Both the position numbers and the translations under genes were made by a program. The notes below the pieces were generated by a model, which was not told where the DNA came from, did not search any database, and saw only the letters and a program-made list of their open reading frames with translations. This document shows positions 4,565 to 32,308 of a stretch of DNA of 64,000 nt, piece by piece. This DNA comes from an uncultured Oscillospiraceae bacterium (GTDB taxonomy: Bacteria; Bacillota; Clostridia; Oscillospirales; Oscillospiraceae), in assembly GCA_947631865.1 (NCBI GenBank), contig CANRNF010000003.1, positions 16,595 through 80,594 of the forward strand, in the 5' to 3' direction. Position 1 is the first letter of the stretch. Each line of letters begins with the position of its first letter.

Positions 4565-4632
4565 AAAGTCAGGTTTGGTTTCGTAAAAGTCAGTGCGCAC
4601 CCGTTGCGGAAAGCAGACTGGCATAGTAAAAT
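4565..4632 (+). promoter_or_regulatory. LytTR-type direct-repeat box R1 plus -10 (TAAAAT) upstream of M13 peptidase 1
   Basis: AAAGTCAG occurs at 4565-4572 and again at 4586-4593, a 21-bp phasing. TAAAAT lies 33 nt downstream of the second repeat. Confidence 0.6.
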
Positions 4633-4681
4633 GATCACAGTAGGGCGGCGGCCATCCGCTGCAGAAGGGAGAACATAGATC

Positions 4682-6700
4682 ATGAGAGCAAAGCGCATAC
4701 TGTCCCTTGTCCTGGCGCTGGTGATGGCGCTGGGGTGCAGCGGTACGGCTTTCGCCGCGGAGGAGGACGACGGCGTCCTGAACTTTTTGCCGGAGACCAA
4801 GCCCGCGCCGGAGGACGACCTGTACGGGTATGTGAACTTCGACATCCTGCAGGGCAAGGAGATACCGGTGGGCCATTCCTCCTGGGATGGGTTCACTGAA
4901 AACGACCTGGAGATCACTGAAGAACTCAACGCGATGCTGGACGAGTATGTGGCCAACGCCAGGACCTACGAGAAGGGGACGCCGGAGCAGAAGATCGCGG
5001 ACCTGTACCTGTCCTATGTGGACGAGGAAAGCCGCAACGCCACCGGCATCGAGCCCCTGCGGCCCTATCTGGACGCCATCAATAACGCCGGGACCGTTCA
5101 GGAGTATGTGGAGGCCATCGCCACGCTGGACGGAGAGCTGGGCTATGGAAGCCTGCTGTCCACCAGCATGGAAACGGACCTTTACGATTCCACCCGCTAC
5201 GCCGCTATTATAAGACAGGCGGACCTGGGACTGGGAAAGGCATACCTGGAGGACGAGAGCATGTCCTCCTACTGGGATATCTATAAGACCTTGGTCACGA
5301 AGCTGTTCGTGCTGTACGGCCTGAGCGAAGAGGAGGCCGCCGAAAAGGCCGGGGACGTCTTCACCCTGCAGACAAAGCTGGCCGCGTCCACGCTGTCCGA
5401 GGCGGAACTGTACGACTATTCCAAGTCGTACCAGCCCAAAAGCCTGGACGAGGTGGCCGCGCTGCTGCCCACCGTCGATATGGGGCCGGTGCTGGAGGCC
5501 TTCGGGCTGAGCGGGACAGAGCGGTTCCTGGTGATGGACGTGGGGCAGCTGGAGGCCGTCGGCCAGGTGCTCACGGAGGAGAACCTGCAGCTTTTGAAGG
5601 ATTTCTCCACCGCCACGCTGCTGAAGGATATGGCATCTTACCTTAGCATGGACTACCGGCAGGCAAAGCAGGATTACTCCTCAGCCCTGAATGGCGTCAC
5701 TCCCAAGGAACTGTCGGAGGCGGCCAAGGACTCGGTGGAGTCGAACCTGAAATGGGAGTTTGCCAAGCTCTACGTGGAGAAATACTTCCCCGAGGAGAGC
5801 AAGCAGGAGGTCCTGGATATCGTCGATGAGATCGTGGCCTGGTTCTACGGGCGCATCGACGAGCTGGACTGGATGGGCGATGAGACGAAGGCGGCCGCCA
5901 AGAAGAAGCTGGACACCCTGACGGTGAAGATCGGCTACCCCGATAGCTATGATTTCGTGGCGTATCTGGATGATGTGGAGTATGTCTCCCCGGCGGACGG
6001 CGGCAGCCTCATCGAGAACAAGATGGCTCAGTGGCGTACCGAGGCTGCGTTCAGCCACAGCCAGGTGGGCCAGGAGGTGGACAAGTCCGCCTGGGGCATG
6101 ACGCCTCAGACCGTGAACGCCTACTATGACCCCGCCGCCAACGAGATCGTATTCCCCGCGGGAATCCTCCGGGGCGTGTTCTTCGATCCGGACGCCAGCC
6201 GGGCGGCCCATCTGGGCTCCATCGGCGCGGTCATAGGCCATGAGCTGACCCATGCCTTCGACAGCTCCGGCGCCCAGTTTGACGAGAACGGCAACCTGAA
6301 TATGTGGTGGACCGAGGAGGACTACGCCAACTTCACGGCTCTGCAGCAGAAGGTCATCGACTACTATGACGCTTTTGAGGTGATGGACGGCGTCACTGTC
6401 AACGGCGAACTGACCCTTGGGGAGAACATCGCCGACCTGGGCGCGGTGCACTGCGTTACGGAGCTGTGCGGGGACGACCCGGAGGCCCTGCGGGAGCTGT
6501 TCACCGCCTGGGCCAGGTCTTGGGTCCTCGTGGAGACCCGCGAGAAATTTGATAAGCTGATCCGCACGGACGTCCATTCCCCCAAGGTGGCCCGCGTCAA
6601 CGCGGTGGTCAGCGCCACCGACGCCTTCTATACGGCCTATGACGTGCAGGAGGGCGACGGCATGTACGTGGCCCCTGCCGACCGGGTGGGCATCTGGTAA
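4682..6700 (+). CDS. M13 family zinc metallopeptidase (PepO/neprilysin-like) lipoprotein, copy 1
   Basis: 672 aa with lipobox MALGC, HELTHAF (HExxH) and GENIADLG (ExxxD). Confidence 0.88.
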   Translation: MRAKRILSLVLALVMALGCSGTAFAAEEDDGVLNFLPETKPAPEDDLYGYVNFDILQGKEIPVGHSSWDGFTENDLEITEELNAMLDEYVANARTYEKGTPEQKIADLYLSYVDEESRNATGIEPLRPYLDAINNAGTVQEYVEAIATLDGELGYGSLLSTSMETDLYDSTRYAAIIRQADLGLGKAYLEDESMSSYWDIYKTLVTKLFVLYGLSEEEAAEKAGDVFTLQTKLAASTLSEAELYDYSKSYQPKSLDEVAALLPTVDMGPVLEAFGLSGTERFLVMDVGQLEAVGQVLTEENLQLLKDFSTATLLKDMASYLSMDYRQAKQDYSSALNGVTPKELSEAAKDSVESNLKWEFAKLYVEKYFPEESKQEVLDIVDEIVAWFYGRIDELDWMGDETKAAAKKKLDTLTVKIGYPDSYDFVAYLDDVEYVSPADGGSLIENKMAQWRTEAAFSHSQVGQEVDKSAWGMTPQTVNAYYDPAANEIVFPAGILRGVFFDPDASRAAHLGSIGAVIGHELTHAFDSSGAQFDENGNLNMWWTEEDYANFTALQQKVIDYYDAFEVMDGVTVNGELTLGENIADLGAVHCVTELCGDDPEALRELFTAWARSWVLVETREKFDKLIRTDVHSPKVARVNAVVSATDAFYTAYDVQEGDGMYVAPADRVGIW

Positions 6701-6721
6701 AGGCAGGAGAACTTTCATCGG

Positions 6722-6757
6722 AAGAGGCCATTCCTGTACGGGGACGGCCTCTTTTCG
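6722..6757 (+). terminator. Rho-independent terminator after M13 peptidase 1
   Basis: Stem AAGAGGCC/GGCCTCTT followed by a T-run. A near-identical structure follows copy 2. Confidence 0.6.
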
Positions 6758-6780
6758 CCCGGGCCGGATGGGGATCGCGT

Positions 6781-6849
6781 AAAAGTCAGGTTTGATTACG
6801 AAAATGTCGGCCCTGCCGCATTGAGAAACTCCGTCGGGTATGATAAAAT
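6781..6849 (+). promoter_or_regulatory. LytTR-type direct-repeat box R2 plus -10 upstream of the response regulator/kinase operon
   Basis: AAAAGTCAG at 6781-6789 and AAAATGTCGG at 6801-6810; the GTCAG/GTCGG cores are 21 bp apart. TAAAAT at 6844-6849 lies 33 nt after the second repeat. Confidence 0.6.
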
Positions 6850-6975
6850 TAACTTGGAGAGATGTTTTGAAGAGAACGGTGTGTATGTGCGGCCGGTTCA
6901 TTGATCCTTTATGGCCCTAATGGAGCGCAGGTGGTATTCATTAGGACATAAGGCCCGCTGTGAGGAGGTATGTCT

Positions 6976-7707
6976 ATGCGGATCGCGGTCTGCGACGATG
7001 ACCTGCGGGAGATGGAACAATTTGAGGACGCCCTGCAGGGATGGGACCCGACCAGGAAAGCGGAGAAGTTTATGGACGGCGCTTCGCTGCTGGAGGCGGC
7101 CAAAGACGTACCCGGCTTCGATATCGTGTTTTTGGACATCTACATGCCAGGAGAAAACGGCGTTGACATCGCGAAGCGGCTGCGGGAGATATCGCCTGAG
7201 ACGGGTATCGCCTTCGTCACCACCAGCACGGAGCACGCGGTGGAGGCGTTTTCCCTGCACGCGCTGCATTATCTTGTCAAGCCGGTGACGACCAGGGGCG
7301 TGGTGGAGGCCTTCCGGCGGCTGACGGAGATCCGGAAAAGTCAGCGGGAGCGGATATCGTTCGCTGTCGGCACGAACCGGATCACGGTGTTTCTGGATCA
7401 AATCTGCCTGCTTGAAAACGACAACCATGTGGTGAACGTCTCCCTGTCCGACGGACGGCGGCTGAAGGTATGGATGAGCTTTGGCGAGCTGGAGCGAAAG
7501 CTGAGCGGGAGCTTTTTGCGTATCAACCGGGGGATCATCGTCAATATGGACTATATCGCCCAAATGGGGGCTGACACCTGTACCCTGCGGGACGGGAGCC
7601 GGCTGCCCATCGCCGTACGGCAGAGCGCTGCCATCCGCGCGGCCTATGACGACTATGTGTTCGACCAGCTCTCCCGGCGAAAGAGCTTTTCGGAGGTACA
7701 GCCATGA
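6976..7707 (+). CDS. LytTR-family (AgrA/ComE-like) response regulator
   Basis: The receiver domain shows CDDD, FLDIYMPGENG and LVKP. A C-terminal LytTR DNA-binding domain follows. ATG 6976 lies 7 nt after GAGGAGG; an alternative ATG is at 6970. Confidence 0.88.
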   Translation: MRIAVCDDDLREMEQFEDALQGWDPTRKAEKFMDGASLLEAAKDVPGFDIVFLDIYMPGENGVDIAKRLREISPETGIAFVTTSTEHAVEAFSLHALHYLVKPVTTRGVVEAFRRLTEIRKSQRERISFAVGTNRITVFLDQICLLENDNHVVNVSLSDGRRLKVWMSFGELERKLSGSFLRINRGIIVNMDYIAQMGADTCTLRDGSRLPIAVRQSAAIRAAYDDYVFDQLSRRKSFSEVQP

Positions 7708-9089
7708 GCGTGGGCGTGTATCTGCGTAACGCGGCAGGCTTCTTTCTCGAGATATTCCCCTGCGTGATGTTGGTCTTCCTGCCCTTTTCGGAGGAGTCGT
7801 TCCGCTTTCACAGAAAGCGCGTCCTTCTCGGGGAGGCGGCCGCGGTAACGGTGCTGTCGGCTCTGTTCCCGGCGGCGATGTACGCCGCGGCGCAGCGGGA
7901 CATGGCGGTGGCCGCCAATATCTTCATGGGCGCCGTCATATTGCTCACGCTCATCGCGCAGGGCTGGCTGATACGGGAGGCCCCGATCAAGAAGACCATG
8001 GCCGTGTTCGCGGTGGTATTTTACGGCGTGACACAGTACTGGCTGGTGAACATGCTGATCGGCGCCGTGTCCGGGCTGGTCCCGCTGTCTCAGGAACTGG
8101 AGAACTGGTCGGTATATTCCCCCTGCGGGCTGGCGATGTACGCGGTCACGACGGTGATCCTGCTGCCGCTGATGCTCCTTCTGGTGATCCAGCCGCTGAG
8201 CGAGTATCTCCAGGAGATAGAGACAAAAAAGATGCGCCAGGAGTTCTTTATCCTGGCGGCGACCACGGTGGTATTCCTTCTGCTGGTCATGGCGGCTGAC
8301 ATCAGCTACTATCGTGTGGGGTACCGGGCGTATCACCGGGAACTGCCCCAGCTTCTGGTGGCGCTGATGGACCAGCTGGCCATCTATTGGCTGATCTTCC
8401 GGGAGTCCGTGTGGCGCAAACGGGACAGCGACCACCAGCGGGCTCTGGAGATACAGCAGCTCCAATATGAAAAGATCGTCAGCGATATGGAGAACACCCG
8501 GCGGATGAGCCATGACCTGCGCCACCACTACAGCTCTCTGAACGAGATGCTTCAGGACGGCAGGCTGGATGAGATGAAGCGCTATCTCTCCCAGGTGCTG
8601 GACGACAACGCCAAGCGGATGAACGAGGTCTACTGTGAGGACATGGCGGTCAACGGGCTTTTGCAGTACTACGCGGGCGTCGCCCGGGCGGAGGGGATAC
8701 GCTGCGACATCCAGGCCCAGTGCGACAACGTGACCATCGCCCCCACGGATCTGACGGTGGTGTTCGGCAACGCCATGGAAAACGCCGTCAACGCCTGCCG
8801 GAAGTGCGGCCAGGACCGGTGGATCCTCGTGCGCGTCGGCACGGTGCAGGGTTCGCTGGCCATCGAGATATCCAACGCCTGCAGCGGCGTGTGCATCAGC
8901 CGCCGGGAGCAGACCGAGGATGGCTTCCTGCCCGCGGAGGCGTTTTTGAGTGAGCGGGCCAACGGCGGGTACGGCCTGCGCAGTATCGCCCAGACCGCCC
9001 AGAAATACGGCGGCAGCGCCAGGTTCCGGTATGACGCCGGGGAGGATACGTTCACATCCCGTATCCGGTTGAATATGCCCACGGAATGA
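7704..9089 (+). CDS. AgrC/ComD-like (HPK10-type) membrane sensor histidine kinase
   Basis: 461 aa with about 6 N-terminal TM segments. It has an H-box SHDLRHH, an N-box FGNAMENAVNA and a G-box GGYGLRSI. An ATGA overlap couples it to the regulator gene. Confidence 0.85.
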   Translation: MSVGVYLRNAAGFFLEIFPCVMLVFLPFSEESFRFHRKRVLLGEAAAVTVLSALFPAAMYAAAQRDMAVAANIFMGAVILLTLIAQGWLIREAPIKKTMAVFAVVFYGVTQYWLVNMLIGAVSGLVPLSQELENWSVYSPCGLAMYAVTTVILLPLMLLLVIQPLSEYLQEIETKKMRQEFFILAATTVVFLLLVMAADISYYRVGYRAYHRELPQLLVALMDQLAIYWLIFRESVWRKRDSDHQRALEIQQLQYEKIVSDMENTRRMSHDLRHHYSSLNEMLQDGRLDEMKRYLSQVLDDNAKRMNEVYCEDMAVNGLLQYYAGVARAEGIRCDIQAQCDNVTIAPTDLTVVFGNAMENAVNACRKCGQDRWILVRVGTVQGSLAIEISNACSGVCISRREQTEDGFLPAEAFLSERANGGYGLRSIAQTAQKYGGSARFRYDAGEDTFTSRIRLNMPTE

Positions 9090-9115
9090 GCGCTAAAAAA
9101 TTTTTTCGCAGGTGT

Positions 9116-9152
9116 CGGCCCTTTCGCCGCGCTGGATCGTATAAAGAGACAG
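9116..9152 (+). promoter_or_regulatory. Conserved bipartite promoter-like element P1 (CGGCCCTTT-N13-CGTATAAAGAGACAG)
   Basis: One of five copies with an invariant 13-nt spacer and an upstream A/T tract. It lies 68 nt upstream of the A1 start. Confidence 0.55.
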
Positions 9153-9205
9153 CACGGCAGTTCGGAGCCGTAAAATAAACACCAATTTTTAAGGAGGAAA
9201 AAACC

Positions 9206-9388
9206 ATGTCCGAAGAGAAGAAGAACGAAGTCCAGGAGCAGAACGAGCTGAACGAGAACGATCTGGACGGCGTGTCCGGCGGCGCCTTTGCCGAGGTAAA
9301 CCCGCTGAGCATGGGCCGTAATGTCCTCAGGACCACTGAAGACGGAAGGGCTGACGGCCCCATGACCAGCCGCTCCAACATTCGGTGA
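9206..9388 (+). CDS. A1: GG-leader peptide, Cys-free 34-aa core; candidate signalling peptide
   Basis: MSEEKKNEVQEQNELNENDLDGVSGG|AFAEV... SD AAGGAGG lies upstream. The gene sits directly downstream of the kinase. Confidence 0.7.
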   Translation: MSEEKKNEVQEQNELNENDLDGVSGGAFAEVNPLSMGRNVLRTTEDGRADGPMTSRSNIR

Positions 9389-9422
9389 AAAACAGCAGCC
9401 GGAGGGGTCCGACGGGAGGAAC

Positions 9423-9629
9423 ATGATGAACGTAAACACCATGGACACCCGGCTCAGGGCGCTTTTTGACCGCCAGAGGAAGGTCAGCGATCCGCGCATG
9501 GCGCGGCTCATCGGGGAGACAGAGACCCGGTGGGGCGCGCCCATCGCGGACGACGACCTGGGATCGGTGGCGGCGGCGGGCGACCCGGACGCAGGCCAGA
9601 GAAAAACACCCTGGGATGAGCGCAGATGA
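9423..9629 (+). CDS. Hypothetical 68-aa protein translationally coupled to the sigma factor gene
   Basis: SD GGGAGGA lies upstream. Its stop overlaps the sigma start (ATGA). No family was recognised. Confidence 0.5.
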   Translation: MMNVNTMDTRLRALFDRQRKVSDPRMARLIGETETRWGAPIADDDLGSVAAAGDPDAGQRKTPWDERR

Positions 9630-10099
9630 TGGACGGGGAAGAGCTGTACCTGCGGTACAGGGATAAGGTCCTGGCCTATATCCGCGCCAGGGTGGAAAAC
9701 GAACAGGACGCGGAGGACCTTTGCTCCACCGTCTTTATGAAGGCGTGGGCAAACCTGCCGGATTATGACGGGCAGAGGTCCTCTGTCTCCACATGGCTTT
9801 TTTCCATCGCCCACAACGCGATCATCGACTTTTACCGCGGCCGGCGGCCGGCGGCCGAATTGGACGAGACGGTGCCGGCCCCGGAGCGGGACCCGGAACT
9901 GGAGGCCCTGGCGGAGGCGCTGGAGGCCCTGCCGGAGCGGGAGCGGGACGTGATCGTGCTGTACTACTACCACGGACTGACCCTGAAGGAGATCGCGGTC
10001 CACATGCGCCTTGCCTACAGCACGGTGAAGCTCTGCCACAGCCGGACGCTGGAGGCGCTCAGACAGATGATGGGCGGAACAGAGGCCCTGAAGATATGA
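9626..10099 (+). CDS. Sigma-70 family, ECF-like RNA polymerase sigma factor
   Basis: 157 aa containing only region 2 (DAEDLCSTVFMKAW, STWLFSIAHNAIIDFYR) and region 4 (LPERERDVIVLYYYHGLTLKEIA). Confidence 0.85.
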   Translation: MMDGEELYLRYRDKVLAYIRARVENEQDAEDLCSTVFMKAWANLPDYDGQRSSVSTWLFSIAHNAIIDFYRGRRPAAELDETVPAPERDPELEALAEALEALPERERDVIVLYYYHGLTLKEIAVHMRLAYSTVKLCHSRTLEALRQMMGGTEALKI

Positions 10100-10132
10100 C
10101 CGGAAACGACAGTTTTTGAAGGAGATACGACC

Positions 10133-10429
10133 ATGGAGCAGAAAGTGATCGAGGAATTCCTGGAAAAGGCGAAGCAGGCAAAGAGCCCGGAGGAGATCAA
10201 GGCCGCCGCGAGGGCGTGCGGTCTGGAGCTGACGGCGGAGAAGCTCACGAAGCTGGACGGCGCGCTTTGTGGAGCGAAGGGCGAGCTGTCCGACGAGGAC
10301 CTGGACGGCGTCGCCGGCGGGAAGCAGAACCTGGAGTATGGCACCCCTGAGTTTTGGCACTATGTAGACGAACAGATCCAAAAATACGGACCGAGTGTCG
10401 TCCCCGCTTTGATGGCGACCTATATGTAA
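10133..10429 (+). CDS. N1: Nif11-like-leader GG precursor, Cys-free core
   Basis: MEQKVIEEFLEKAKQAKSPEEIKAAARACGLELTAEKL...ELSDEDLDGVAGG|KQNLEYG... matches the Nif11 leader architecture. Confidence 0.8.
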   Translation: MEQKVIEEFLEKAKQAKSPEEIKAAARACGLELTAEKLTKLDGALCGAKGELSDEDLDGVAGGKQNLEYGTPEFWHYVDEQIQKYGPSVVPALMATYM

Positions 10430-10482
10430 TAAACGCAGAAGACGCTAGCGGGGGACATACATAGTAAAGGGGAGGCACTATC

Positions 10483-10716
10483 GTGGACGACAACGAGAAC
10501 AAAAAGAGCGGTGAAGAGCTGGCCGACGAGGCCCTGGACAAGGTGGCCGGCGGCGGGTTAATGCGTAAGCCATGCTGCTTTATATGCGGTCGGGACGACA
10601 TTCCCCTGGGAGAGGGTTCCTACCGTGCGGCGGATTATGGAAGATCCATTTCCTATATCTGCGAGGCTTGCTTAAAATCCAACTACGGCCCGGAATGGAC
10701 ATGGCGCAAACTTTGA
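10483..10716 (+). CDS. A2: short-GG-leader precursor, zinc-ribbon-like core (class i)
   Basis: GTG start after AAAGGGGAGG. Leader (M)DDNENKKSGEELADEALDKVAGG; core has CFIC...YICEAC. Confidence 0.8.
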   Translation: MDDNENKKSGEELADEALDKVAGGGLMRKPCCFICGRDDIPLGEGSYRAADYGRSISYICEACLKSNYGPEWTWRKL

Positions 10717-10749
10717 TGGCCGGGTGACCCGGCAGAGAGGAGAATTATC

Positions 10750-11055
10750 ATGGAGCAGAAGAAGATCGAGGAATTCGTGGAAAAAGCGAAGCAGGCCAAG
10801 AGCCCGGAGGAAGTGGAGGCCGCAGCGAAGGCGTGCGGGGTGGAGCTGACGGCGGAGAAGCTCGCGAAGCTGGAGAAATCCCTCCGCGGAAAGAAGGGCG
10901 AGCTGTCCGACGAGGAGCTGGCCGGCGTTTCCGGCGGGGCGGTGGATCCGAGCACGACCGATTGGCTCGCTGAGCAGCTCGTTGAGCAGTTCAAAGAGCA
11001 GATCAAAGACCTCGACCCGGAATTCTTGGAATTGCTGAAGCTGGCTTTGTCCTGA
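10750..11055 (+). CDS. N2: Nif11-like-leader GG precursor, Cys-free amphipathic core
   Basis: Its leader is nearly identical to N1. ...ELSDEELAGVSGG|AVDPSTTDWLAEQLVEQFKEQI... Confidence 0.8.
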   Translation: MEQKKIEEFVEKAKQAKSPEEVEAAAKACGVELTAEKLAKLEKSLRGKKGELSDEELAGVSGGAVDPSTTDWLAEQLVEQFKEQIKDLDPEFLELLKLALS

Positions 11056-11078
11056 AAGACGGGAACAGGAGAAACGAC

Positions 11079-11345
11079 ATGGACAACAGCGAGAACAAAA
11101 AGAGCTACGAGGAACTGGCCGACGAGGCATTGGACAAGGTGGCCGGCGGTGGCTGGGAATGGCTATGGGGAGACTCATCGCCCAGAGTGACCCCATGCGG
11201 CATTTGCCGCGGAACTGAGGAGCAAGCTATATTATATACGATCGATTTCGGCAACGGCGGCAGCTCCGGGATGTACTTGTGTTCCAAGTGCCTCGCGGAC
11301 GAAAGGAAAAAATATAAAGTGACCGAAGGCTGGGGCGGGAAATGA
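11079..11345 (+). CDS. A3: short-GG-leader precursor, zinc-ribbon-like core (class i)
   Basis: Leader MDNSENKKSYEELADEALDKVAGG; core has PCGIC...YLCSKC. Confidence 0.82.
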   Translation: MDNSENKKSYEELADEALDKVAGGGWEWLWGDSSPRVTPCGICRGTEEQAILYTIDFGNGGSSGMYLCSKCLADERKKYKVTEGWGGK

Positions 11346-11399
11346 CGTGCGCGGAATTGTCCGAAGGCTGCCATTGCTGACGAAAGGAAAGGAAGAGCT

Positions 11400-11618
11400 A
11401 TGAATCAAGACGAAAATAAAAAAAGCGTTGAAGAACTGGCGGACGAGGCCTTGGACGCGATAACGGGCGGGAAGAGGGATGAATACGTACGCCCCACGGT
11501 CACCTGTCCCAAGTGCCATCAGCAAAAAGAGAGGCTGGTGACATGCCGTGACCCGAAGGATCCGACAAAGCGTGAGTCCATGTGCCCCGACTGTGCCCGC
11601 GATCTCGGGTATGTGTGA
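11400..11618 (+). CDS. A4: short-GG-leader precursor, zinc-ribbon-like core (class i)
   Basis: Leader MNQDENKKSVEELADEALDAITGG; core has CPKC...MCPDC. Confidence 0.8.
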   Translation: MNQDENKKSVEELADEALDAITGGKRDEYVRPTVTCPKCHQQKERLVTCRDPKDPTKRESMCPDCARDLGYV

Positions 11619-11650
11619 TGACCGTCCCGGACGGAGAAAGGAGAGACATC

Positions 11651-11863
11651 ATGGAAAACAGCGAGAACAAAAAGACCCCGGAAGAGCTGGCCGACGAGGC
11701 GTTGGACAAGGTGGCCGGGGGGGAGTACGGTGGGGATTTTGTTGTACTCAACTGCAGATCCTGCCGCCACCATAACAATGACTGTCCCTACGGAACTCCG
11801 CTGGGTGCCGTGTTAGAATTGAAACCATCGTATTGGACACTGTGCCCAAGCAAGGAGGCTTGA
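11651..11863 (+). CDS. A5: short-GG-leader precursor, class ii Cys core
   Basis: Leader MENSENKKTPEELADEALDKVAGG; core has NCRSC...DCPY...LCP. The internal ATG is preferred over the track start 11582 because of the SD and the leader alignment. Confidence 0.78.
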   Translation: MENSENKKTPEELADEALDKVAGGEYGGDFVVLNCRSCRHHNNDCPYGTPLGAVLELKPSYWTLCPSKEA

Positions 11864-11866
11864 CCG

Positions 11867-12112
11867 ATGAACGACAGCGAGAACAAAAAGAGCGGTGAGG
11901 CCTTGGCCGACGAGGCGCTGGAAAATGTGTCCGGGGGGAGCGACGATGTTTTTTTTACAATTATAAGTTTTAGGAACAATTTTAAAAGCAGAAACAATTG
12001 CACGTCCTGCAACAGCTATTACAGGAGCAACTGTCTGCTAAAGCTTACTGTTGAAGGACTCTACGATAAGTTTAGCGGGGACAATAACGCGATGTGCCCT
12101 TACAAGACGTAA
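11867..12112 (+). CDS. A6: short-GG-leader precursor, class ii Cys core
   Basis: Leader MNDSENKKSGEALADEALENVSGG; core has NNCTSC...NC...AMCPYKT. The core DNA is locally AT-rich. Confidence 0.78.
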   Translation: MNDSENKKSGEALADEALENVSGGSDDVFFTIISFRNNFKSRNNCTSCNSYYRSNCLLKLTVEGLYDKFSGDNNAMCPYKT

Positions 12113-12138
12113 GACAGGGCCGAAAGGAGAAAACGGAC

Positions 12139-12378
12139 ATGAGCGACAGCGAGAACAAAAAGACCCCGGAGGCCCTGGCCGACGAGGCGCTGGACGCGGT
12201 GGCCGGCGGGAGCAGCAGATTTGACGCGCTCCTTAAGGGGGGAGCCTGCGCGGACTGCCCACGGATCGACGAGAGCGTTCATATGTATGATGTGATATTC
12301 GACGGCAGCAGCATGTCCATCTATCTCTGTCCCGATTGCGTTGCCAAACGCCGCCAAAGAGGACAAGTGGTTCGGTAA
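12139..12378 (+). CDS. A7: short-GG-leader precursor, zinc-ribbon-like core (class i)
   Basis: Leader MSDSENKKTPEALADEALDAVAGG; core has CADC...YLCPDC. The start at ATG 12139 is chosen by SD and leader alignment. Confidence 0.8.
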   Translation: MSDSENKKTPEALADEALDAVAGGSSRFDALLKGGACADCPRIDESVHMYDVIFDGSSMSIYLCPDCVAKRRQRGQVVR

Positions 12379-12406
12379 GCGCGCAGACAGCGGAAAGGAG
12401 AGCGAC

Positions 12407-12682
12407 ATGAACGATAGCGAGAATAAAAAGACCCCGGAGGAGCTGGCCGACGAGGCGCTGGAGAAGGTGTCCGGAGGCGGGCTCTCCTGGGGCGGCCTTG
12501 TACTACCGGACCCGCTGGAGGACATTTTCGCTGAGAAGTGCCATAAGTGCGGGAAAAAGCCCGGTCGGCAGTATACCCTGTACTATCCGACGCCGTTCGG
12601 CCCCAGGATCGAGACCTGCTGCGACGACTGCGCCGAACTGTTCAGACAAACGTATGGAGGCGAAGCGATCCCCGTCGACTGA
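12407..12682 (+). CDS. A8: short-GG-leader precursor, zinc-ribbon-like core (class i)
   Basis: Leader MNDSENKKTPEELADEALEKVSGG; core has CHKC...CCDDC. Confidence 0.8.
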   Translation: MNDSENKKTPEELADEALEKVSGGGLSWGGLVLPDPLEDIFAEKCHKCGKKPGRQYTLYYPTPFGPRIETCCDDCAELFRQTYGGEAIPVD

Positions 12683-12709
12683 CGGCAGACAGCGGAAAGG
12701 AGAACGACT

Positions 12710-12961
12710 ATGAATGATAACGAGAACAACAAGAGCATGGAGGCTCTGCCCGACGAGGCCCTGGACAAGGTGACCGGCGGTGATGGATTGACATATCTGC
12801 CTTTCAAGATCCCATGCCACAGGTGCCCCAGATGTGACGAGACCGTGATGTATTATACGATCAAAGACGAAAGCGGTGGGTACGGGATGAACCTGTGTCC
12901 CGACTGCGTCGCGGAACTCAGGAAAGATCATACGGTGTACGAAGGCTTTCATCTATTCTGA
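12710..12961 (+). CDS. A9: short-GG-leader precursor, zinc-ribbon-like core (class i)
   Basis: Leader MNDNENNKSMEALPDEALDKVTGG; core has CHRCPRC...NLCPDC. Confidence 0.82.
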   Translation: MNDNENNKSMEALPDEALDKVTGGDGLTYLPFKIPCHRCPRCDETVMYYTIKDESGGYGMNLCPDCVAELRKDHTVYEGFHLF

Positions 12962-12981
12962 CGCCGGGAAAGAGGACGACA

Positions 12982-13172
12982 GTGAATAACGAACGCAAAC
13001 GTGTACCCCCCGAAGCGCTGGACGACGATGCCATGGACAGGGTCGCCGGGGGAGGATCACTCTCAGACGGACAGGGGTTCTACCACTGTAAAAACTGCGG
13101 TGCGCAGTTCACAAAAACCAGATCGTGTATGGCCGCCGTCTCAGCTGCCCCAGCTGCGGGGCATGGCTGTGA
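12982..13172 (+). pseudogene. A10: frameshifted GG-leader precursor (class i); single-A deficit in A5 run at 13113-13117
   Basis: GTG start, (V)NNERKRVPPEALDDDAMDRVAGG...FYHCKNCGAQFTK. With one more A the frame reads NQIVYGRRLSCPSCGAWL-stop at 13172, parallel to A11. As written the frame runs on into A11. Confidence 0.65.
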
Positions 13173-23120: not shown

Positions 23121-23138
23121 AGATGAAGGGAGGCAGAG

Positions 23139-23700: not shown

Positions 23701-23723
23701 GGCCTGGACCAAAGGGGGGGCCT

Positions 23724-23756
23724 GTGAACGACAGCGGGAACAAAAGAGCAGCGTAG
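23724..23756 (+). pseudogene. Truncated leader remnant (VNDSGNKRAA-stop)
   Basis: gtgaacgacagcgggaacaaaaga matches the 5' end of A19 (atgaacgacagcggaaacaaaagg) but stops after 10 codons. Confidence 0.5.
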
Positions 23757-23782
23757 AAACAAATCAAAAAGGAGCAGACACC

Positions 23783-25045
23783 ATGAAGCGGAGCACGAGA
23801 TACTGGCTTGCGCTGGCCCTGACGGCGGCGCTGATCCTGGGCGCGGCGATGCCTGCGCTGGCGGCGGAGGAGGCGGCCACAGCAGAGGAAGCCTTCGATA
23901 TGGCCGTGGCGTATATGTACGGCGACGGGGTGGAGCAGGACTCTGAAAAGGCCTTCCAGCTCTTCAGCCAGGCGGCGGAGCAGGACTATCCCGACGCCTA
24001 CGAGTACCTGGCCTATCTGTACTATGCCGGCGAGGGCGTGGAGCAGGATTACGCCGAGGCGATGGAGTGGTACAAAAAGGCCGCGGAGAATGGAAACGCC
24101 AGAGCGGCCTTCGACGTGGGCGCGATGTACGACTTCGGCGACGGCGTGGATCAGGATCATGCCATGGCGAAGGAGTGGTACGAAAAGGCCTCGGAGATGG
24201 GCGACGACGACGCGCTCAACAACCTGGGCTGCCTGTACGAATACGGCGACGGCGTGGAGCGGGACTACGCCAAGGCGGCGGAGTATTACACCCAGGCCTC
24301 GGAGATGGGCGACGGCATGGCCTCGGCGAACCTGAGCTGGCTGTATGCCTGCGGTCTGGGCGTGGAGCGGGACGAGGCAAAGGCCTTCGAGCTGGCCGGC
24401 AAGGCGGCGGAGGCAGGCGAGAGCGGTGGCATGTATTTGATGGGCCAGTTCTATGACTACGGCTACGGCGTGGTGGAGAAAGACCACGCCCAGGCGGCCC
24501 AGTGGTATGAAAAGGCCATCGAGGCGGACGGCGAGAACGCGGCGGCCTTGATGGAGCTGGGCACTCTTGTCAAAGACGGCGAGGGCACGGAAAAGGACGA
24601 GGCGCGGGCCGAAGAGCTCTTCCAGGAGGCCGCGGAGATCCTTCTGGCGTGGGAGGCCGAGGATGCGCTGGACATCTCCGAAAAGCGGACCCTGGGCCAG
24701 CTGTACTATACGGGCATGGGCGTGGAACAGGACTATGAAAAGGCCGCGGAACTGCTGGCCGACGCCGCTGGAGACAACGACCGGGACGCCCTGTATGTTC
24801 TGGGCGCCTGCTATCTCTTCGGCCAGGGCGTGGAGCAGGATATGGCCAAGGCCATGGAGCTGATCACCGGCGCGGCGGAACAGGGGCTACCCGTTGCCAT
24901 GGCGACGCTGGGCACGATGTATGAGCAGGGCTTGGGCGTGGACGCGGACCCGGATATGGCCCGGCAATTCTATGAAGAGGCCGCCTCCCTGGGCATGGAC
25001 ACCTCCAGGGAGCTGGAGCATCTGGCGGAGACGCCCGCCGCCTGA
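23783..25045 (+). CDS. Secreted Sel1-repeat protein (420 aa)
   Basis: Signal peptide ...AAMPALAAEE. It has about 10 Sel1 units of the same type as the giant paralog. Confidence 0.88.
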   Translation: MKRSTRYWLALALTAALILGAAMPALAAEEAATAEEAFDMAVAYMYGDGVEQDSEKAFQLFSQAAEQDYPDAYEYLAYLYYAGEGVEQDYAEAMEWYKKAAENGNARAAFDVGAMYDFGDGVDQDHAMAKEWYEKASEMGDDDALNNLGCLYEYGDGVERDYAKAAEYYTQASEMGDGMASANLSWLYACGLGVERDEAKAFELAGKAAEAGESGGMYLMGQFYDYGYGVVEKDHAQAAQWYEKAIEADGENAAALMELGTLVKDGEGTEKDEARAEELFQEAAEILLAWEAEDALDISEKRTLGQLYYTGMGVEQDYEKAAELLADAAGDNDRDALYVLGACYLFGQGVEQDMAKAMELITGAAEQGLPVAMATLGTMYEQGLGVDADPDMARQFYEEAASLGMDTSRELEHLAETPAA

Positions 25046-25061
25046 GAAATTTAGAAGCGTT

Positions 25062-25098
25062 CGGCCCTTTCGGCGGACTGGAACGTATATAGATACAC
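25062..25098 (+). promoter_or_regulatory. Conserved bipartite promoter-like element P3
   Basis: CGGCCCTTT-N13-CGTATATAGATACAC, 37 nt upstream of the A16 ATG. Confidence 0.5.
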
Positions 25099-25120
25099 AC
25101 CGGCGAGCGGAGGTATCATC

Positions 25121-25363
25121 ATGAACAACAACGAAAACAGAAAGGCTCCCCAGGAGCTGACAGACGAGATGCTGGACGCGGTGGCCGGAGGCGGGCGCCA
25201 GGCCGATAGCTCTGACGCGTATTTTTGGCAGCAGTTTCGGAACAACAACGACTGCCTGCATTGCAAGAACAGCTGCCCGTATATTTTCATGTCGCCCGAG
25301 GAGAGGAGCATTACCTTTGGCAGAGACCCCAACGCGAAGTGCCAGTATTACAAGAGCATGTGA
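25121..25363 (+). CDS. A16: short-GG-leader precursor, class ii Cys core
   Basis: Leader MNNNENRKAPQELTDEMLDAVAGG; core has NDCLHC..SCPY...AKCQYYKSM. Confidence 0.8.
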   Translation: MNNNENRKAPQELTDEMLDAVAGGGRQADSSDAYFWQQFRNNNDCLHCKNSCPYIFMSPEERSITFGRDPNAKCQYYKSM

Positions 25364-25383
25364 GACCGAAGGGAGAGCAAACT

Positions 25384-25629
25384 ATGGAAAACAGCGAGAA
25401 CAAAAAAGCTCCGGAAGAGCTGACGGACGAGATGCTGGACAAGATCGTCGGCGGAGCCGATACACCAGATAAGGATGCCATTCTGGCGTGGGCCATGCAG
25501 TTTGGTATGAACAACTGCTTGCGATGCAAGGGCATGACGACCAGCCAGTGCAGTTACTATCATGGGCCGGTGGACGTCTACCTGATGGGGTTGAAGGCCT
25601 CCGACACCTGCCCCGGATTCATATCCTGA
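25384..25629 (+). CDS. A17: short-GG-leader precursor, class ii Cys core
   Basis: Leader MENSENKKAPEELTDEMLDKIVGG; core has NNCLRC...QC...DTCPGFIS. The internal ATG 25384 is chosen by leader alignment. Confidence 0.78.
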   Translation: MENSENKKAPEELTDEMLDKIVGGADTPDKDAILAWAMQFGMNNCLRCKGMTTSQCSYYHGPVDVYLMGLKASDTCPGFIS

Positions 25630-25645
25630 TGAAGGAGGCGCCGTC

Positions 25646-25915
25646 ATGAGCGACAACGAGAACAGGAAGAACAGCGAAGAACTGGCGGACGAGGCGCTGG
25701 ACAATGTCGCGGGAGGCATCACGCCCGAGCAATGGGAGCAGGCGCGGCAGCAGGCGCTTGCGCAGTATAAGGATCCATGCATCGTGTGCAAGACGACGGA
25801 AGGCGTGAAGTACTACGCCTACAGGAACAAGGTGGGATGCTACGGCGCTCAGTATTTCTGCCCGGCCTGCCGTGATCTGAAGATCCAGCAGGGATATGAG
25901 GTGTGGGAATACTGA
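25646..25915 (+). CDS. A18: short-GG-leader precursor, zinc-ribbon-like core (class i)
   Basis: Leader MSDNENRKNSEELADEALDNVAGG; core has PCIVC...FCPAC. Confidence 0.8.
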   Translation: MSDNENRKNSEELADEALDNVAGGITPEQWEQARQQALAQYKDPCIVCKTTEGVKYYAYRNKVGCYGAQYFCPACRDLKIQQGYEVWEY

Positions 25916-25936
25916 CGGCCGTGCCCGCCAAAGAAA

Positions 25937-25958
25937 GCTGGACAATGTCGCCGGGGGA
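25937..25958 (+). pseudogene. Orphan fragment of a leader 3' end (..LDNVAGG)
   Basis: gctggacaatgtcgccggggga duplicates the A18 leader segment ctggacaatgtcgcgggaggc. It has no start codon or SD. Confidence 0.4.
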
Positions 25959-25993
25959 ATGATGGATATTAGTGATCTTAAGGAGGAACATCC

Positions 25994-26233
25994 ATGAACG
26001 AGGAACTGATCGGGAAGCTGAAGGAGGCCAAGTCCGTGGAGGACGTGGTCGCCGTTGCCAAGCAGTACGGCAAGAAGTTGACCCTGGAGCAGGCCAAGGT
26101 CCTTCTGGACCGGGTGAAGGCCGCTGTGACCGGCGAGTTGTCCGACGAGGACCTGGCCGCCGTCGCCGGCGGCGCCGTCGACCCGAAGAAGTTCGGGGAG
26201 GCCATGGGCGCTGACAAGCATTGGCTGGGCTGA
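25994..26233 (+). CDS. N3: Nif11-like-leader GG precursor, 19-aa Cys-free core
   Basis: MNEELIGKLKEAKSVEDVVAVAKQYGKKLTLEQAKVLL...ELSDEDLAAVAGG|AVDPKKFGEAMGADKHWLG. Confidence 0.75.
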   Translation: MNEELIGKLKEAKSVEDVVAVAKQYGKKLTLEQAKVLLDRVKAAVTGELSDEDLAAVAGGAVDPKKFGEAMGADKHWLG

Positions 26234-26245
26234 TCCGGACAACGA

Positions 26246-26279
26246 GCAAGGGGCTCCCCCACGCGGGGGAGCCCCTTGC
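26246..26279. terminator. Bidirectional terminator hairpin between N3 and fic-like gene
   Basis: A perfect 15-bp stem GCAAGGGGCTCCCCC/GGGGGAGCCCCTTGC with loop ACGC. Confidence 0.75.
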
Positions 26280-26298
26280 TGTATATTAGAGCGGCCGG

Positions 26299-26904
26299 TC
26301 ACAGCTCTTCGATCTTGAAGGCGGAATATCCCTCGTAATAATAGCTGTGGTCGATGCCCTTCATGTATATTTCCCGGTCATTGACCTTGTCGGTCAGGGC
26401 CGCTTTCAGCAGGTGCTTGATCTCTATATCGCGGATGGGGCTGCGCTCCATGGCCAGAAGGTAGTCCTCCTTGTCCACCAGGCTCCAGTCCACTACCATG
26501 CCCAACTCCTTTTTGAAGATGTGGTCCAGCCAGATGCGGGCGCTGCGGCCGTTGCCCTCCCGGAACGGATGGGCGATGTTCATCTCCACATACTTCTCCA
26601 CGATCTGGTCAAAGGTCGACTGGGGCATGCATTCGATGTTTTTCAAAGAGGTCTCCAGATACATGAGGGGGGCGAAGCGGAAATTGCCCTTGGCCAGATT
26701 GACATCCCGCATTTTCCCGGCAAACTCGTAAATGTCCTCAAAGAGGAAGCGATGGATCTCCGCCAGCGTGGCATAAGTTCCCGGCATCAGCGTATCCAGA
26801 CGGCCGCTGTCATAGAGCTGGGCTGCCTTTTTCTTGCTGATACGCTCCTCCTCACGGGCCAACTCCGAAGAGTCCGTGATCCCCAGCTTGTTTTCCAACG
26901 CCAT
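26299..26904 (-). CDS. Fic-domain protein (AMPylase-type)
   Basis: 201 aa with the Fic motif HPFREGNGRSARIW. Confidence 0.85.
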   Translation of the reverse strand: MALENKLGITDSSELAREEERISKKKAAQLYDSGRLDTLMPGTYATLAEIHRFLFEDIYEFAGKMRDVNLAKGNFRFAPLMYLETSLKNIECMPQSTFDQIVEKYVEMNIAHPFREGNGRSARIWLDHIFKKELGMVVDWSLVDKEDYLLAMERSPIRDIEIKHLLKAALTDKVNDREIYMKGIDHSYYYEGYSAFKIEEL

Positions 26905-29987: not shown

Positions 29988-30009
29988 ACTGGCCTGGGCG
30001 AGGTTGCGC

Positions 30010-30078
30010 AAAAGTCAGGTTTGACAGCGAAAATGTCGGAGCCTGCGTGTTGAACGCACCGTTGTGGTGTGATATTAT
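30010..30078 (+). promoter_or_regulatory. LytTR-type direct-repeat box R3 plus -10 upstream of M13 peptidase 2
   Basis: AAAAGTCAG at 30010-30018 and AAAATGTCGG at 30030-30039. TATTAT at 30073-30078 lies 33 nt after the second repeat. Confidence 0.6.
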
Positions 30079-30140
30079 AAAACAGAAAACAGCTATTGGA
30101 TAGGCGGCGGTCATCCGCCGCAGAAGGGAGAACATCGACT

Positions 30141-32159
30141 ATGAAGATAAACCGTGTATTGGCCCTTATCCTGGCGCTGGTGATGGCGCTGGGGTGCTGC
30201 GGCACGGCCTTTGCCGCGGAGGAGGACGACGGCATCCTGGATTTTTTGCCGGAGACAAAGCCCGCGCCGGAGGACGACCTGTACGGGGCCGTGAATTTTG
30301 ATACGCTAAAGGAGAATGAGGTCCCCGCCGGCCGTAAGAGGTGGTCCCCCGATGTGGCCAACGACCTGGAGATCACCGAAGAACTCAACGAGATGCTGGA
30401 CGAGTATGTGGCCAACGCCGGGACTTACGAGAAGGGGACGCCGGAGCAGAAGATCGCGGACCTGTACCTGTCCTACGTGGACGAGGAGAGCCGTAACGCC
30501 ACCGGCATTGAGCCCATCCGTCCCTATCTGGACGCCATCAACAGCGCTTCGACCATCCAGGAGTATGTGGAGGCCATCGCCGCCATGGGCGGTGAGATCA
30601 GTTTTTACAGCCTGCTGTATTTCAGCGTGAGCGTGGATCTTTACGATTCCACCCACTATGCCCTCTATGCGAACCAGGCGGACCTGGGCCTGGGAAAGGC
30701 ATACCTGGAGGACGAGAGCATGTCCTCTTACTGGGATATCTATAAGACCCTGGTCACGAAGCTGTTCGTGCTGTACGGCCTGAGCGAGGAAGAGGCCGCC
30801 GAAAAGACCGAAAACGTCGTCAGCCTGCAGACCAAGCTGGCCGCGTCCACGCTGTCCGAGGCGGATATGTACGACTATTCCAAGGCGTACCAGCCCATGA
30901 GCATGGACGAGATGACGGCGCTGCTGCCTACCGTCGATATGGGGCCGGTGCTGGAGGCCTTCGGGGTATCCGGGGCCGAGCAGGTCGTGGTGACGGATAG
31001 AGGTCAGCTGGAGGCCATCGGCCAGGTGCTCACCGAGGAGAATCTGCCGCTTTTGAAGGACTTCTCCACCGCCACGCTGCTGAAGGATATGGCGCCTTAC
31101 CTGGGCATGGACTACCGGCAGGCGTCGCAGGATTACTCCACAGCCATGAACGGCGTCACCCCCAAGGAGCTGCCGGAGGCGGCCAAGGACTCGGTGGAGT
31201 CGACCCTGGAGTGGGATTTTGCCAAGCTCTATGTGGAGAAGTATTTCCCCGAGGAGAGCAAGCAGTATGTGCTGGACATGACGGACGAGATCATTGCCTG
31301 GTTCGAGCAGCGCATCGACGAGTTGGACTGGATGGGCGACGAGACAAAGGCGGCCGCCAAGAAGAAGCTGGACACCCTGAACGTGAAGATCGGCTACCCT
31401 GACAGCTATGATTTCGTGTCGTATCTGGACGATGTGGAGTACGTCTCCCCGGCGGACGGCGGCAGCCTCATCGAAAACAAGCTGAATGAGTCCAGGGTCT
31501 ACGCCGCGTACAGCCACAGCCTACTGGGGCAGGAGGTGGATAAGTCCGCCTGGGGCATGACGCCTCAGACTGTGAACGCCTACTATAGCCCCACCGCCAA
31601 CGAGATCGTGTTCCCCGCGGGCATCATCCGGGGCGCGTTTTACGATCCCGACGCCAGCCGGGCGTACAACCTGGGCGGCATCGGCGCGGTCTTCGCCCAC
31701 GAGCTGACCCACGCCTTCGACAGCTCCGGCGCCCAGTTTGACGAGAACGGCAACCTGAACATGTGGTGGACCGAGGAGGACTACGCCAACTTCACGGCGC
31801 TGCAGCAGGATGTCATCGACTATTATGAGGCTTTCGAGCTGACGGACGGCATCGACCTCAACGGCGAGCTGACCCTGACGGAGAATATCGCCGACCTGGG
31901 CTCGCTGCACTGCGTGGCGGAGCTGTGCGGGGACGACCCGGAGGCCCTGCGGGAGCTGTTCGAGGCCTATGCCGCGTCCTGGGCCGAGAAGGCGCCCCGG
32001 GAGGTGTACGACAATTGGAGCCGCACGGACACCCACGCTCCCGGCATAGCCCGGACCAACGCGGTGGCCAGCTCCACCGAAGAGTTCTACGAGGCCTATG
32101 ACGTGCAGGAGGGCGACGGCATGTACGTGGCCCCCGAGGACCGGGTCTGCATCTGGTAA
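30141..32159 (+). CDS. M13 family zinc metallopeptidase lipoprotein, copy 2
   Basis: 672 aa from ATG 30141, with lipobox MALGC, HELTHAF and TENIADLG. It is colinear and roughly four-fifths identical by eye to copy 1. Confidence 0.88.
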   Translation: MKINRVLALILALVMALGCCGTAFAAEEDDGILDFLPETKPAPEDDLYGAVNFDTLKENEVPAGRKRWSPDVANDLEITEELNEMLDEYVANAGTYEKGTPEQKIADLYLSYVDEESRNATGIEPIRPYLDAINSASTIQEYVEAIAAMGGEISFYSLLYFSVSVDLYDSTHYALYANQADLGLGKAYLEDESMSSYWDIYKTLVTKLFVLYGLSEEEAAEKTENVVSLQTKLAASTLSEADMYDYSKAYQPMSMDEMTALLPTVDMGPVLEAFGVSGAEQVVVTDRGQLEAIGQVLTEENLPLLKDFSTATLLKDMAPYLGMDYRQASQDYSTAMNGVTPKELPEAAKDSVESTLEWDFAKLYVEKYFPEESKQYVLDMTDEIIAWFEQRIDELDWMGDETKAAAKKKLDTLNVKIGYPDSYDFVSYLDDVEYVSPADGGSLIENKLNESRVYAAYSHSLLGQEVDKSAWGMTPQTVNAYYSPTANEIVFPAGIIRGAFYDPDASRAYNLGGIGAVFAHELTHAFDSSGAQFDENGNLNMWWTEEDYANFTALQQDVIDYYEAFELTDGIDLNGELTLTENIADLGSLHCVAELCGDDPEALRELFEAYAASWAEKAPREVYDNWSRTDTHAPGIARTNAVASSTEEFYEAYDVQEGDGMYVAPEDRVCIW

Positions 32160-32180
32160 ACACAGGAAAACTTACATCGG

Positions 32181-32216
32181 AAGAGGCCATCCCGGTATGG
32201 GGACGGCCTCTTTTTT
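32181..32216 (+). terminator. Rho-independent terminator after M13 peptidase 2
   Basis: Stem AAGAGGCC/GGCCTCTT followed by a T6 run. Confidence 0.65.
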
Positions 32217-32239
32217 GCCCGGGCCGGGAAGGATTACGT

Positions 32240-32308
32240 AAAAATCAGGTTTGATTACGAAAACGTCAGAGCCTCCTTGTTGAGGAGGGCATTTTGTTAT
32301 GATAAAAT
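32240..32308 (+). promoter_or_regulatory. LytTR-type direct-repeat box R4 plus -10 upstream of the partner-switching/export operon
   Basis: AAAAATCAG at 32240-32248 and AAAACGTCAG at 32260-32269. TAAAAT at 32303-32308 lies 33 nt after the second repeat. Confidence 0.55.

Follow-up and report, generated by a model that had tools for sequence, protein, structure and literature searches.

A direct repeat linked to promoters accompanies a LytTR regulator/kinase pair in uncultured rabbit-gut Clostridia

A 64-kb stretch of DNA from an uncultured Oscillospiraceae bacterium (GenBank assembly GCA_947631865.1, contig CANRNF010000003.1, positions 16,595 to 80,594), hereafter called the window, contains four copies of a direct-repeat element, here called boxes, which stand just upstream of promoters; all position numbers refer to the whole stretch. 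We show that this direct repeat is specific to one lineage, is linked to promoters, and accompanies both a LytTR regulator/kinase pair and a recurrent set of genes. The four boxes are very likely the operators of the response regulator encoded at 6970-7707, judging from sequence, and the circuit seems, by analogy, to serve quorum sensing through a peptide pheromone, as regulons of the Pln/Blp/Com type do; that the regulator binds and activates, and what the signal is, are inferred. The boxes are as follows:

Box 1, 4561..4593, + strand: two direct-repeat units, 5' of M13 peptidase a
Box 2, 6778..6810, + strand: two direct-repeat units, 5' of the regulator/kinase operon
Box 3, 30007..30039, + strand: two direct-repeat units, 5' of M13 peptidase b
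Box 4, 32237..32269, + strand: two direct-repeat units, 5' of the STAS-to-ABC operon

Sequence inspection located the four elements where the original prediction had placed them, every one on the + strand, with (G/A)TC(A/G)G cores spaced exactly 21 bp in each box (in box 1, for instance, the GTCAG cores lie at 4568-4572 and 4589-4593). The consensus proposed at that time stands for this core and its spacing, but its AAAA(T/C)GTC part misfits unit 2 of box 1 (AAAAGTCAG), while AAAnGTCAG accommodates all eight repeat units in the window. Similarly, the description as 9-bp repeats with a 12-bp spacer is correct for the 21-bp period but not for the repeated unit, which is about 16 bp long (ATTnCRnAAAnGTCAG); the 'spacer' between the units is conserved too, as GTTTGAYT in the 80-site profile presented below. 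The boxes are imperfect direct repeats and not palindromes.

Only the four boxes match the strict pattern AAARTCAGGTTTGNNNNCGNAAANGTCRG in the window, even at 3 mismatches (0.00 matches expected from 100 shuffles). In a weight-matrix scan of the 64 kb they score 40-45 bits and the runner-up position 13 bits, with no competing position within 27 bits of them. The loose core RTCRG-N16-RTCRG is found 8 times against 3.3 expected, barely above chance, and because this core alone is hardly enriched the significance resides in the extended motif. As the weight-matrix scan gave no further box above 13 bits in the window, the many other peptide genes of the window are not directly box-controlled.

All four boxes are followed by promoter elements at constant distances. 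Repeat 2 ends at 4593, 6810, 30039 and 32269 in boxes 1-4, respectively, and a -10 hexamer starts after 33 intervening nucleotides in each case (at 4627, 6844, 30073 and 32303), as had been claimed. By hand count, a TTGnnn -35 element sits 10 nucleotides past the repeat in all four, followed by a 17-nucleotide spacer to a -10 hexamer that reads TAAAAT or TATTAT and carries an extended TG in three of the four. The -35 hexamers are weak throughout, and an independent sigma-70 scan recovers three of the promoters:

Promoter 1, 4604..4632, + strand: -35 TTGCGG (4604-4609), 17-nucleotide spacer, -10 TAAAAT (4627-4632); hand count, sub-threshold in the sigma-70 scan
Promoter 2, 6821..6849, + strand: TTGAGA, 17 nucleotides, TG-n-TAAAAT; sigma-70 scan
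Promoter 3, 30050..30078, + strand: TTGAAC, 17 nucleotides, TG-n-TATTAT; sigma-70 scan
Promoter 4, 32280..32308, + strand: TTGAGG, 17 nucleotides, TG-n-TAAAAT; sigma-70 scan

The long 5' leaders were searched against Rfam, and the only RNA element recovered was a tRNA at 4254-4338. This tRNA gene (- strand) has a near-consensus promoter at 4372-4400 (- strand; TTGACA, 17 nucleotides, TATTAT, plus TG) and diverges from box 1.

Boxes 1 and 3 precede two M13 peptidase genes that share 85-90% DNA identity, and boxes 2 and 4 lie directly downstream of the terminators of these genes:

M13 peptidase a, 4682..6700, + strand: 672 amino acids, lipoprotein-type signal peptide (..LALGC)
Terminator hairpin of M13 peptidase a, 6721..6754, + strand: followed by a U-run, directly 5' of box 2
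M13 peptidase b, 30141..32159, + strand: 672 amino acids from ATG 30141, lipoprotein signal peptide
Terminator hairpin of M13 peptidase b, 32179..32214, + strand: followed by a U-run, directly 5' of box 4

The duplicated block (about 4625-6809 and 30076-32268) takes in the terminator hairpins and boxes 2 and 4, so that these two boxes have a recent common ancestor. Outside the well-conserved block, where boxes 1 and 3 are situated, the two copies have no more than the motif, -35 and -10 in common and the surrounding segments are 50-58% identical; moreover, box 1 resembles box 2 within one and the same duplicate copy. The window thus holds about three independent instances of the box rather than four, and evidence from other genomes was therefore needed. 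The TTG at 30096 listed for M13 peptidase b is probably not its true start. A G+C-rich hairpin (GGCGGCGG-NNNN-CCGCYGC) occurs at 4645-4662 and 30104-30121, 10-20 nucleotides 5' of the M13 ribosome-binding sites, a position it takes clade-wide; in relatives it reads GGGCGG..CCGCCC (e.g. locus L010, about 14795-14812 and 17483-17500). The fold energies of this leader hairpin are unexceptional (z = -0.5 and -2.1).

We scanned one genome per species, 185,579 species altogether, with the degenerate pattern AANRTCAGNTTTGNNNNCNNAAANGTCR, for which about 17 chance matches are expected by our own estimate. A total of 109 stretches matched, 72 from 30 species of rabbit-gut ('Lapin') Clostridia represented by metagenome-assembled genomes (MAGs) and 37 from unrelated phyla. 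The rabbit-gut matches agree with the consensus at 13.8 of the 17 unconstrained positions on average. The 37 others agree at 5.0 of 17, against a random expectation of 4.25, and were rejected as chance matches. The box with its extended consensus is confined to the 30 rabbit-gut MAG species, with 1-8 sites in each. All genuine matches come from MAGs of a single rabbit-gut study, which NCBI labels as Oscillospiraceae, Lachnospiraceae, Ruminiclostridium or Marvinbryantia; these taxonomic labels look inconsistent, and the clade seems to be restricted to that host or that sampling.

The geometry of the window recurs in these genomes. The core period is exactly 21 bp in 80 distinct sites elsewhere, and their profile displays ATTKC 5' of unit 1, TTGAA at +39 and TG-n-TAWAAT at +59 to +67. 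The motif might have been a ubiquitous genomic repeat unrelated to promoters, but it is found in 30 MAG species with promoter elements generally at the same distances. A mobile repeat or one of the repetitive extragenic palindromic type was likewise ruled out, since the closest relative, Lapin-001__bin25, whose regulator is 94% identical, has just 8 strict matches in its whole MAG, in promoter-like settings. At some promoters 3-6 units follow each other in perfect 21-bp register (L020, L061 and L085). Such multi-unit arrays were observed at L020 (- strand, about 1877-1990), L061, L085 and L087, and one of them precedes the gene for an M13 peptidase of 807 amino acids.

To describe the regulon, the first or second genes 3' of 82 site clusters were grouped by sequence similarity, which gave the following families:

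Regulator: 15 sites (15 different rabbit-gut MAGs), with the kinase next at 13
AIM24-family proteins: 10 sites
M13 peptidases: 9 sites
Nif11-leader precursors: at least 7 sites
Small membrane protein: 7 sites
Radical SAM enzymes: 4 sites
STAS: 3 sites
Sodium:dicarboxylate symporters: 3 sites
ECF sigma factors: 2 sites
HD hydrolase-dnaG-rpoD operon: 2 sites

Large surface proteins and STAS/SpoIIE modules are likewise among the genes downstream of boxes, and of all targets outside the regulatory genes the M13 genes are conserved best. The targets originally predicted for the window, namely both M13 genes, the regulator/kinase operon itself and the 12-kb STAS-to-ABC operon, all find orthologous box-promoter-gene combinations elsewhere. 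A canonical box also lies 5' of an HD hydrolase-dnaG-rpoD operon, which encodes primase and the housekeeping sigma factor, in L027 (2984, - strand) and L097 (2314, + strand); these two boxes come from the closest relative and one other MAG, and neither has TTGAA or a -10 at the customary spacing.

The genes that follow box 2 include a regulator of the expected type:

Response regulator, 6970..7707, + strand: Response_reg and LytTR domains; orthologues begin at the MRI.. codon, 6976
Histidine kinase, 7704..9089, + strand: GHKL HATPase_c_5, AgrC/ComD/PlnB-like architecture
Double-glycine-leader peptide, 9206..9388, + strand: 60 amino acids, ..NDLDGVSGG|AFAEVNPL.., a candidate pheromone
Small open reading frame, 9423..9629, + strand: 68 amino acids, its end overlapping the start of the sigma gene via ATGA
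ECF-type sigma factor, 9626..10099, + strand
Nif11-like-leader peptide precursor, 10133..10429, + strand: TIGR03798, 35.1 bits (cut-off 32.3); homologues elsewhere lie directly 3' of boxes

The open reading frame at 6970-7707 combines a receiver with a LytTR domain (Pfam 40.6 bits, cut-off 22.6), in agreement with the claim that a LytTR-type regulator is encoded near the boxes. The kinase at 7704-9089 has about 6-7 hydrophobic spans and an H-box, RRMSHDLRHH, which together with its AgrC-like GHKL domain make it a kinase of the HPK10 type. The sigma factor aside, no other DNA-binding regulator was detected among the window genes examined.

Orthologues of the regulator form a large family (62-94% identity). 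Eight of their loci were looked up, and seven are cited here for comparison of the box. The same box lies 5' of the regulator operon in five of these seven (L001, L003, L005, L007 and L008; regulators 72-81% identical), and TTGAAA and TATAAT follow it at unchanged distances. The DNA on either side shows no relationship to that of the window and is even AT-rich. L009 (9880-9910) and L010 (9876-9909), whose regulators are 67-71% identical, possess a variant box, GCGTGAAATGCRGGTTTTGGNGCGTRAAATGYGG, with units GAAATGCRG and unchanged geometry to TTGAAA and TATAAT. Their LytTR domains depart from the other orthologues at several otherwise invariant positions, which may be taken as weak evidence that the LytTR protein and the box change together. 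Elsewhere, the neighbours of the regulator/kinase pair are M13 peptidases, STAS and SpoIIE, a short HlyD-like protein with ABC1 and ABC2, an ECF sigma factor and CstA. The domains, the geometry and the cross-species conservation of the box lend support to the proposal that the boxes are LytTR operators similar to those of AgrA, ComE, BlpR and PlnC.

By analogy with PlnC/PlnD, ComE and AgrA, where two LytTR domains occupy two repeats in tandem just 5' of the -35, we infer a comparable mechanism for the rabbit-gut circuit. The kinase (7704-9089) would phosphorylate the regulator, whose predicted acceptor is the Asp in ..FLDIYMPG.., and two regulator molecules would bind head-to-tail, one per unit and two helical turns (21 bp) apart, in a region of about -78 to -46 relative to the transcription starts, which are predicted to fall near 4639, 6856, 30085 and 32315. 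The bound pair may then recruit RNA polymerase to the weak -35 just 3' of the box. In this way the regulator would switch on its own operon in a positive feedback, and transcription probably reads on into the genes for the double-glycine peptide, the ECF sigma factor and the Nif11-leader peptide. It would also switch on the two surface-anchored M13 peptidases as well as the 12-kb operon with its partner-switching module and GH3 enzyme, and from this same operon the cell would obtain the proteins that export and cleave double-glycine peptides.

Several observations weigh against assigning the boxes to this regulator. Direct repeats with a 21-bp period serve activators of the AraC family as well, and the geometry alone therefore does not identify the binding protein. 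A search of solved-structure sequences with the regulator returned receiver domains only, and no LytTR domain of AgrA or ComE. Boxes 2 and 4 belong to a recent duplication, so their likeness alone proves little, and a few sites of relatives are without a recognisable -35/-10, for example the box in front of the HD-dnaG-rpoD genes in L027 and L097. Furthermore, the 64 kb examined here are a part of the genome, and a paralogous LytTR regulator that binds these boxes may be encoded elsewhere. Finally, the motif is not known to match any LytTR consensus, such as those of AgrA and ComE, and it differs from TACGTTAAT, that of PlnC (PMC2714321).

Some of these points would fit the explanation that the boxes are real operators bound by another protein, either a paralogous LytTR regulator whose gene lies outside the 64 kb or an activator of the AraC type, for the geometry is not diagnostic and the motif is not known to fit any published LytTR consensus. 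We nevertheless consider this improbable. The box lies directly 5' of the regulator/kinase operon at 15 sites in as many MAGs, the targets are physically clustered around this regulator, the box and the LytTR domain co-vary in L009/L010, and the window genes examined include no DNA-binding regulator besides the sigma factor.

It seems slightly less probable still that the regulator at 6970-7707 binds the boxes but represses, or that it acts both ways like the PlnC/PlnD pair. PlnD represses via the same repeats from which PlnC activates (PMC2714321), and the optimal 17-nucleotide spacers together with the extended TG -10 of three of the four promoters could permit basal activity. However, the boxes end 10 nucleotides 5' of the -35 (at about -46), which is a typical activator position without overlap of the core promoter, and the -35 hexamers are weak. 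That the boxes are mere relics of the M13 cassette duplication without a regulatory role is highly improbable, since the 85-90% identical M13 regions do span boxes 2 and 4 but leave out boxes 1 and 3, which have just motif and promoter positions in common, since box 1 resembles box 2 inside a single copy, and since the motif is kept at orthologous promoters in 30 species with diverged flanks.

Taking the boxes as operators of the LytTR regulator, candidates for the signal are the 60-residue peptide encoded beside the kinase and the Nif11-leader peptide whose gene follows that of the sigma factor; candidate signal peptides include AFAEVNPLSMGRNVLRTTEDGRADGPMTSRSNIR, the core encoded at 10133-10429 and the ..GSLFGK-type cores from relatives. 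In L005, the sole such peptide of the cluster sits after the sigma gene and has a 15-residue core, IIDTVKEWFGSLFGK. Nif11-leader precursors with 15-19-residue cores ending in ..W(I/F/M)GSLFGK are present in L019, L035, L077, L097, L111 and L005; several of these ..GSLFGK precursors are located directly 3' of boxes, and their core size is that of typical peptide pheromones.

The + strand of the window also carries two copies (0 expected) of a second motif that looks like a promoter, TCGGCCCTTTCG-N-CG-NN-CTGGA-N-CGTATA-N-AGA. One copy (9115-9147) lies 5' of the operon for the 60-residue peptide, the 68-residue open reading frame and the ECF sigma factor, the other (25061-25093) 5' of two double-glycine peptide genes. 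In relatives it was observed at L035 603-631, L048 4347-4375 (- strand) and L055 7551-7579, and in L093 after the kinase gene. Its CGTATA resembles an ECF-type -10, and the motif may be the ECF sigma factor's own promoter, in which case a cascade would run from LytTR regulator to sigma factor. The acidic open reading frame of 65-68 residues is conserved (window 9423-9629; L005 18716-18913; ..LFD.QR....AAAG[DE]..) and has no family match; it may encode an anti-sigma factor or a partner protein. In Lapin-022__bin60 (L093 4910-5115, reverse-complement coordinates) the ECF-type motif comes next after the kinase gene, and then a remnant of the sigma 3'-end fused directly to the STAS operon; the peptide and sigma genes have apparently been lost there by deletion.

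These elements can be assembled into a more specific scheme. The M13 peptidases would degrade the cell's own or competitors' signal and bacteriocin peptides (as negative feedback or quenching), the regulator would drive an ECF sigma factor that fires TCGGCC-N17-CGTATA promoters at peptide genes in a two-tier cascade, and the pheromone would be cut from a Nif11-type long leader as a short core without modification. We regard it as rather doubtful that all three hold jointly, and the role of the M13 enzymes in peptide signalling is a guess by analogy; if true, the three features would be ones not described for LytTR quorum sensing.

The genes predicted to be controlled from box 4 would link the regulator to peptide export:

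Box 4 operon, 32543..44399, + strand: eight tightly packed genes with gaps of at most 40 nucleotides and no strong internal terminator
Gene order of the box 4 operon: STAS; MatE+HATPase_c_2; GH3; SpoIIE+HATPase_c_2; STAS+APH; 158-residue protein like the HlyD N-terminus; NHLP ABC1 (C39 peptidase); NHLP ABC2

A C39-peptidase ABC exporter lies inside this operon (Peptidase_C39 and ABC at 40012-42186). ABC1 matches TIGR03796 with 951.3 bits (NCBIfam cut-off 853.3) and ABC2 matches TIGR03797 with 731.0 bits (cut-off 709.4). A full-length HlyD-type protein (TIGR03794) was not recovered here, as the 158-residue protein covers only positions 1-47 of the 421 in the profile (42.9 bits, cut-off 156); this short HlyD-like form is conserved, with 157 amino acids in L001 and L005. 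The operon also encodes unusual fusions, namely MatE+HATPase_c_2 (32852-34600; anti-sigma-type kinase), SpoIIE phosphatase+HATPase_c_2 (36266-38293) and STAS+APH kinase (38307-39488), which adjoin a GH3 acyl-amido-synthetase-like enzyme. Relatives retain the STAS/SpoIIE/HATPase_c_2 set next to the export genes.

At least 12 further double-glycine peptide genes are found at 10.4-26.3 kb and 44.8 kb, in an island of double-glycine peptides (about 9200-26300 and 44740-44960, + strand). At least 12 of the island peptides share the short leader M-x-N-x-ENKK-x-x-EEL-A-DEALD-x-V-A-GG and have mostly Cys-rich cores, and four further ones have Nif11-type long leaders (10133, 10750, 25994 and p98). Among these genes lie others for a C39-like peptidase that stands alone (13407-14201) and for two Sel1-repeat proteins, 1783 and 420 amino acids long.

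The type of regulation proposed here is itself textbook, a well-known peptide quorum-sensing circuit with a probable new example in uncultured rabbit-gut Clostridia. The architecture agrees with LytTR operators in every testable respect except the known consensus, and the box would thus represent a new specificity within the class. A precise operator, with consensus, geometry and about 80 sites in 30 species, becomes available for an uncharacterised LytTR regulator, and it lets the peptide-signalling regulon of these uncultured bacteria be read from sequence. The regulon connects Nif11/NHLP-type peptide export, best known from cyanobacteria, with classical LytTR quorum sensing, indicates M13 peptidases and the partner-switching/GH3 module as regular outputs, and provides leads on how gut anaerobes control bacteriocin-like peptides.

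Among the closest known parallels is the pln regulon of Lactiplantibacillus plantarum C11 (PlnABCD), whose operons for regulation, transport and peptides each have two tandem repeats with a 21-bp period directly 5' of their -35/-10 (PMC2714321). Both systems combine a LytTR regulator and an HPK10-like kinase with double-glycine peptides, a C39 ABC transporter and an autoregulated operon, the last being predicted in the present case. They differ in consensus (ATTnCRnAAAnGTCAG here, TACGTTAAT in Pln) and in the conserved unit, which is about 16 bp here and 9 bp in Pln. In addition, M13 lipoprotein peptidases, a partner-switching/GH3 operon and an ECF sigma factor are among the predicted targets here, some peptides have Nif11-type long leaders, and the host is an uncultured gut Clostridium of high GC content.

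ComCDE/ComAB and BlpRH/BlpAB of streptococci are comparable as three-component peptide quorum-sensing systems whose regulator activates its own operon and the exporter. The ComE circuit feeds the alternative sigma factor ComX, whereas the sigma factor here is of ECF type, lies 3' of the kinase in the same direction of transcription, and would form part of a cascade suggested by the second promoter-like motif. ComE is a LytTR regulator that binds direct repeats (PMC4005675), as proposed for the regulator described here. Competence genes are not present in our case.

The AgrA sites at P2/P3 of Staphylococcus aureus each pair two LytTR direct repeats, spaced by 12-13 bp, beside the -35, and they too mediate autoregulation. 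In contrast to the Agr system, there are no AgrB/AgrD-type cyclic-peptide genes here, and while the spacer of the AgrA P3 promoter is overlong, the promoter spacers here have the optimal 17 nucleotides.

The precursor and export genes correspond to the NHLP/Nif11 system (Haft et al. 2010, PMC2887384), with the precursor (TIGR03798), ABC1 (TIGR03796) and ABC2 (TIGR03797) all above their cut-offs, except that the HlyD-like partner here has only 158 amino acids and represents the N-terminus of TIGR03794. In the literature on LytTR together with Nif11 we found no paper linking the NHLP/Nif11 system to LytTR quorum sensing, and that on GH3/STAS/SpoIIE with bacteriocins yielded no description of this system.

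PepO, which belongs to the M13 family of peptidases, offers a precedent for the proteolytic branch. It degrades the XIP peptide signal in vitro, and PepO of S. mutans was reported as not under ComDE control (bioRxiv 10.1101/670752). On this precedent the M13 enzymes of the rabbit-gut Clostridia could damp peptide signalling; they differ from PepO in that their genes are predicted targets of the box and the enzymes are predicted to be surface lipoproteins.

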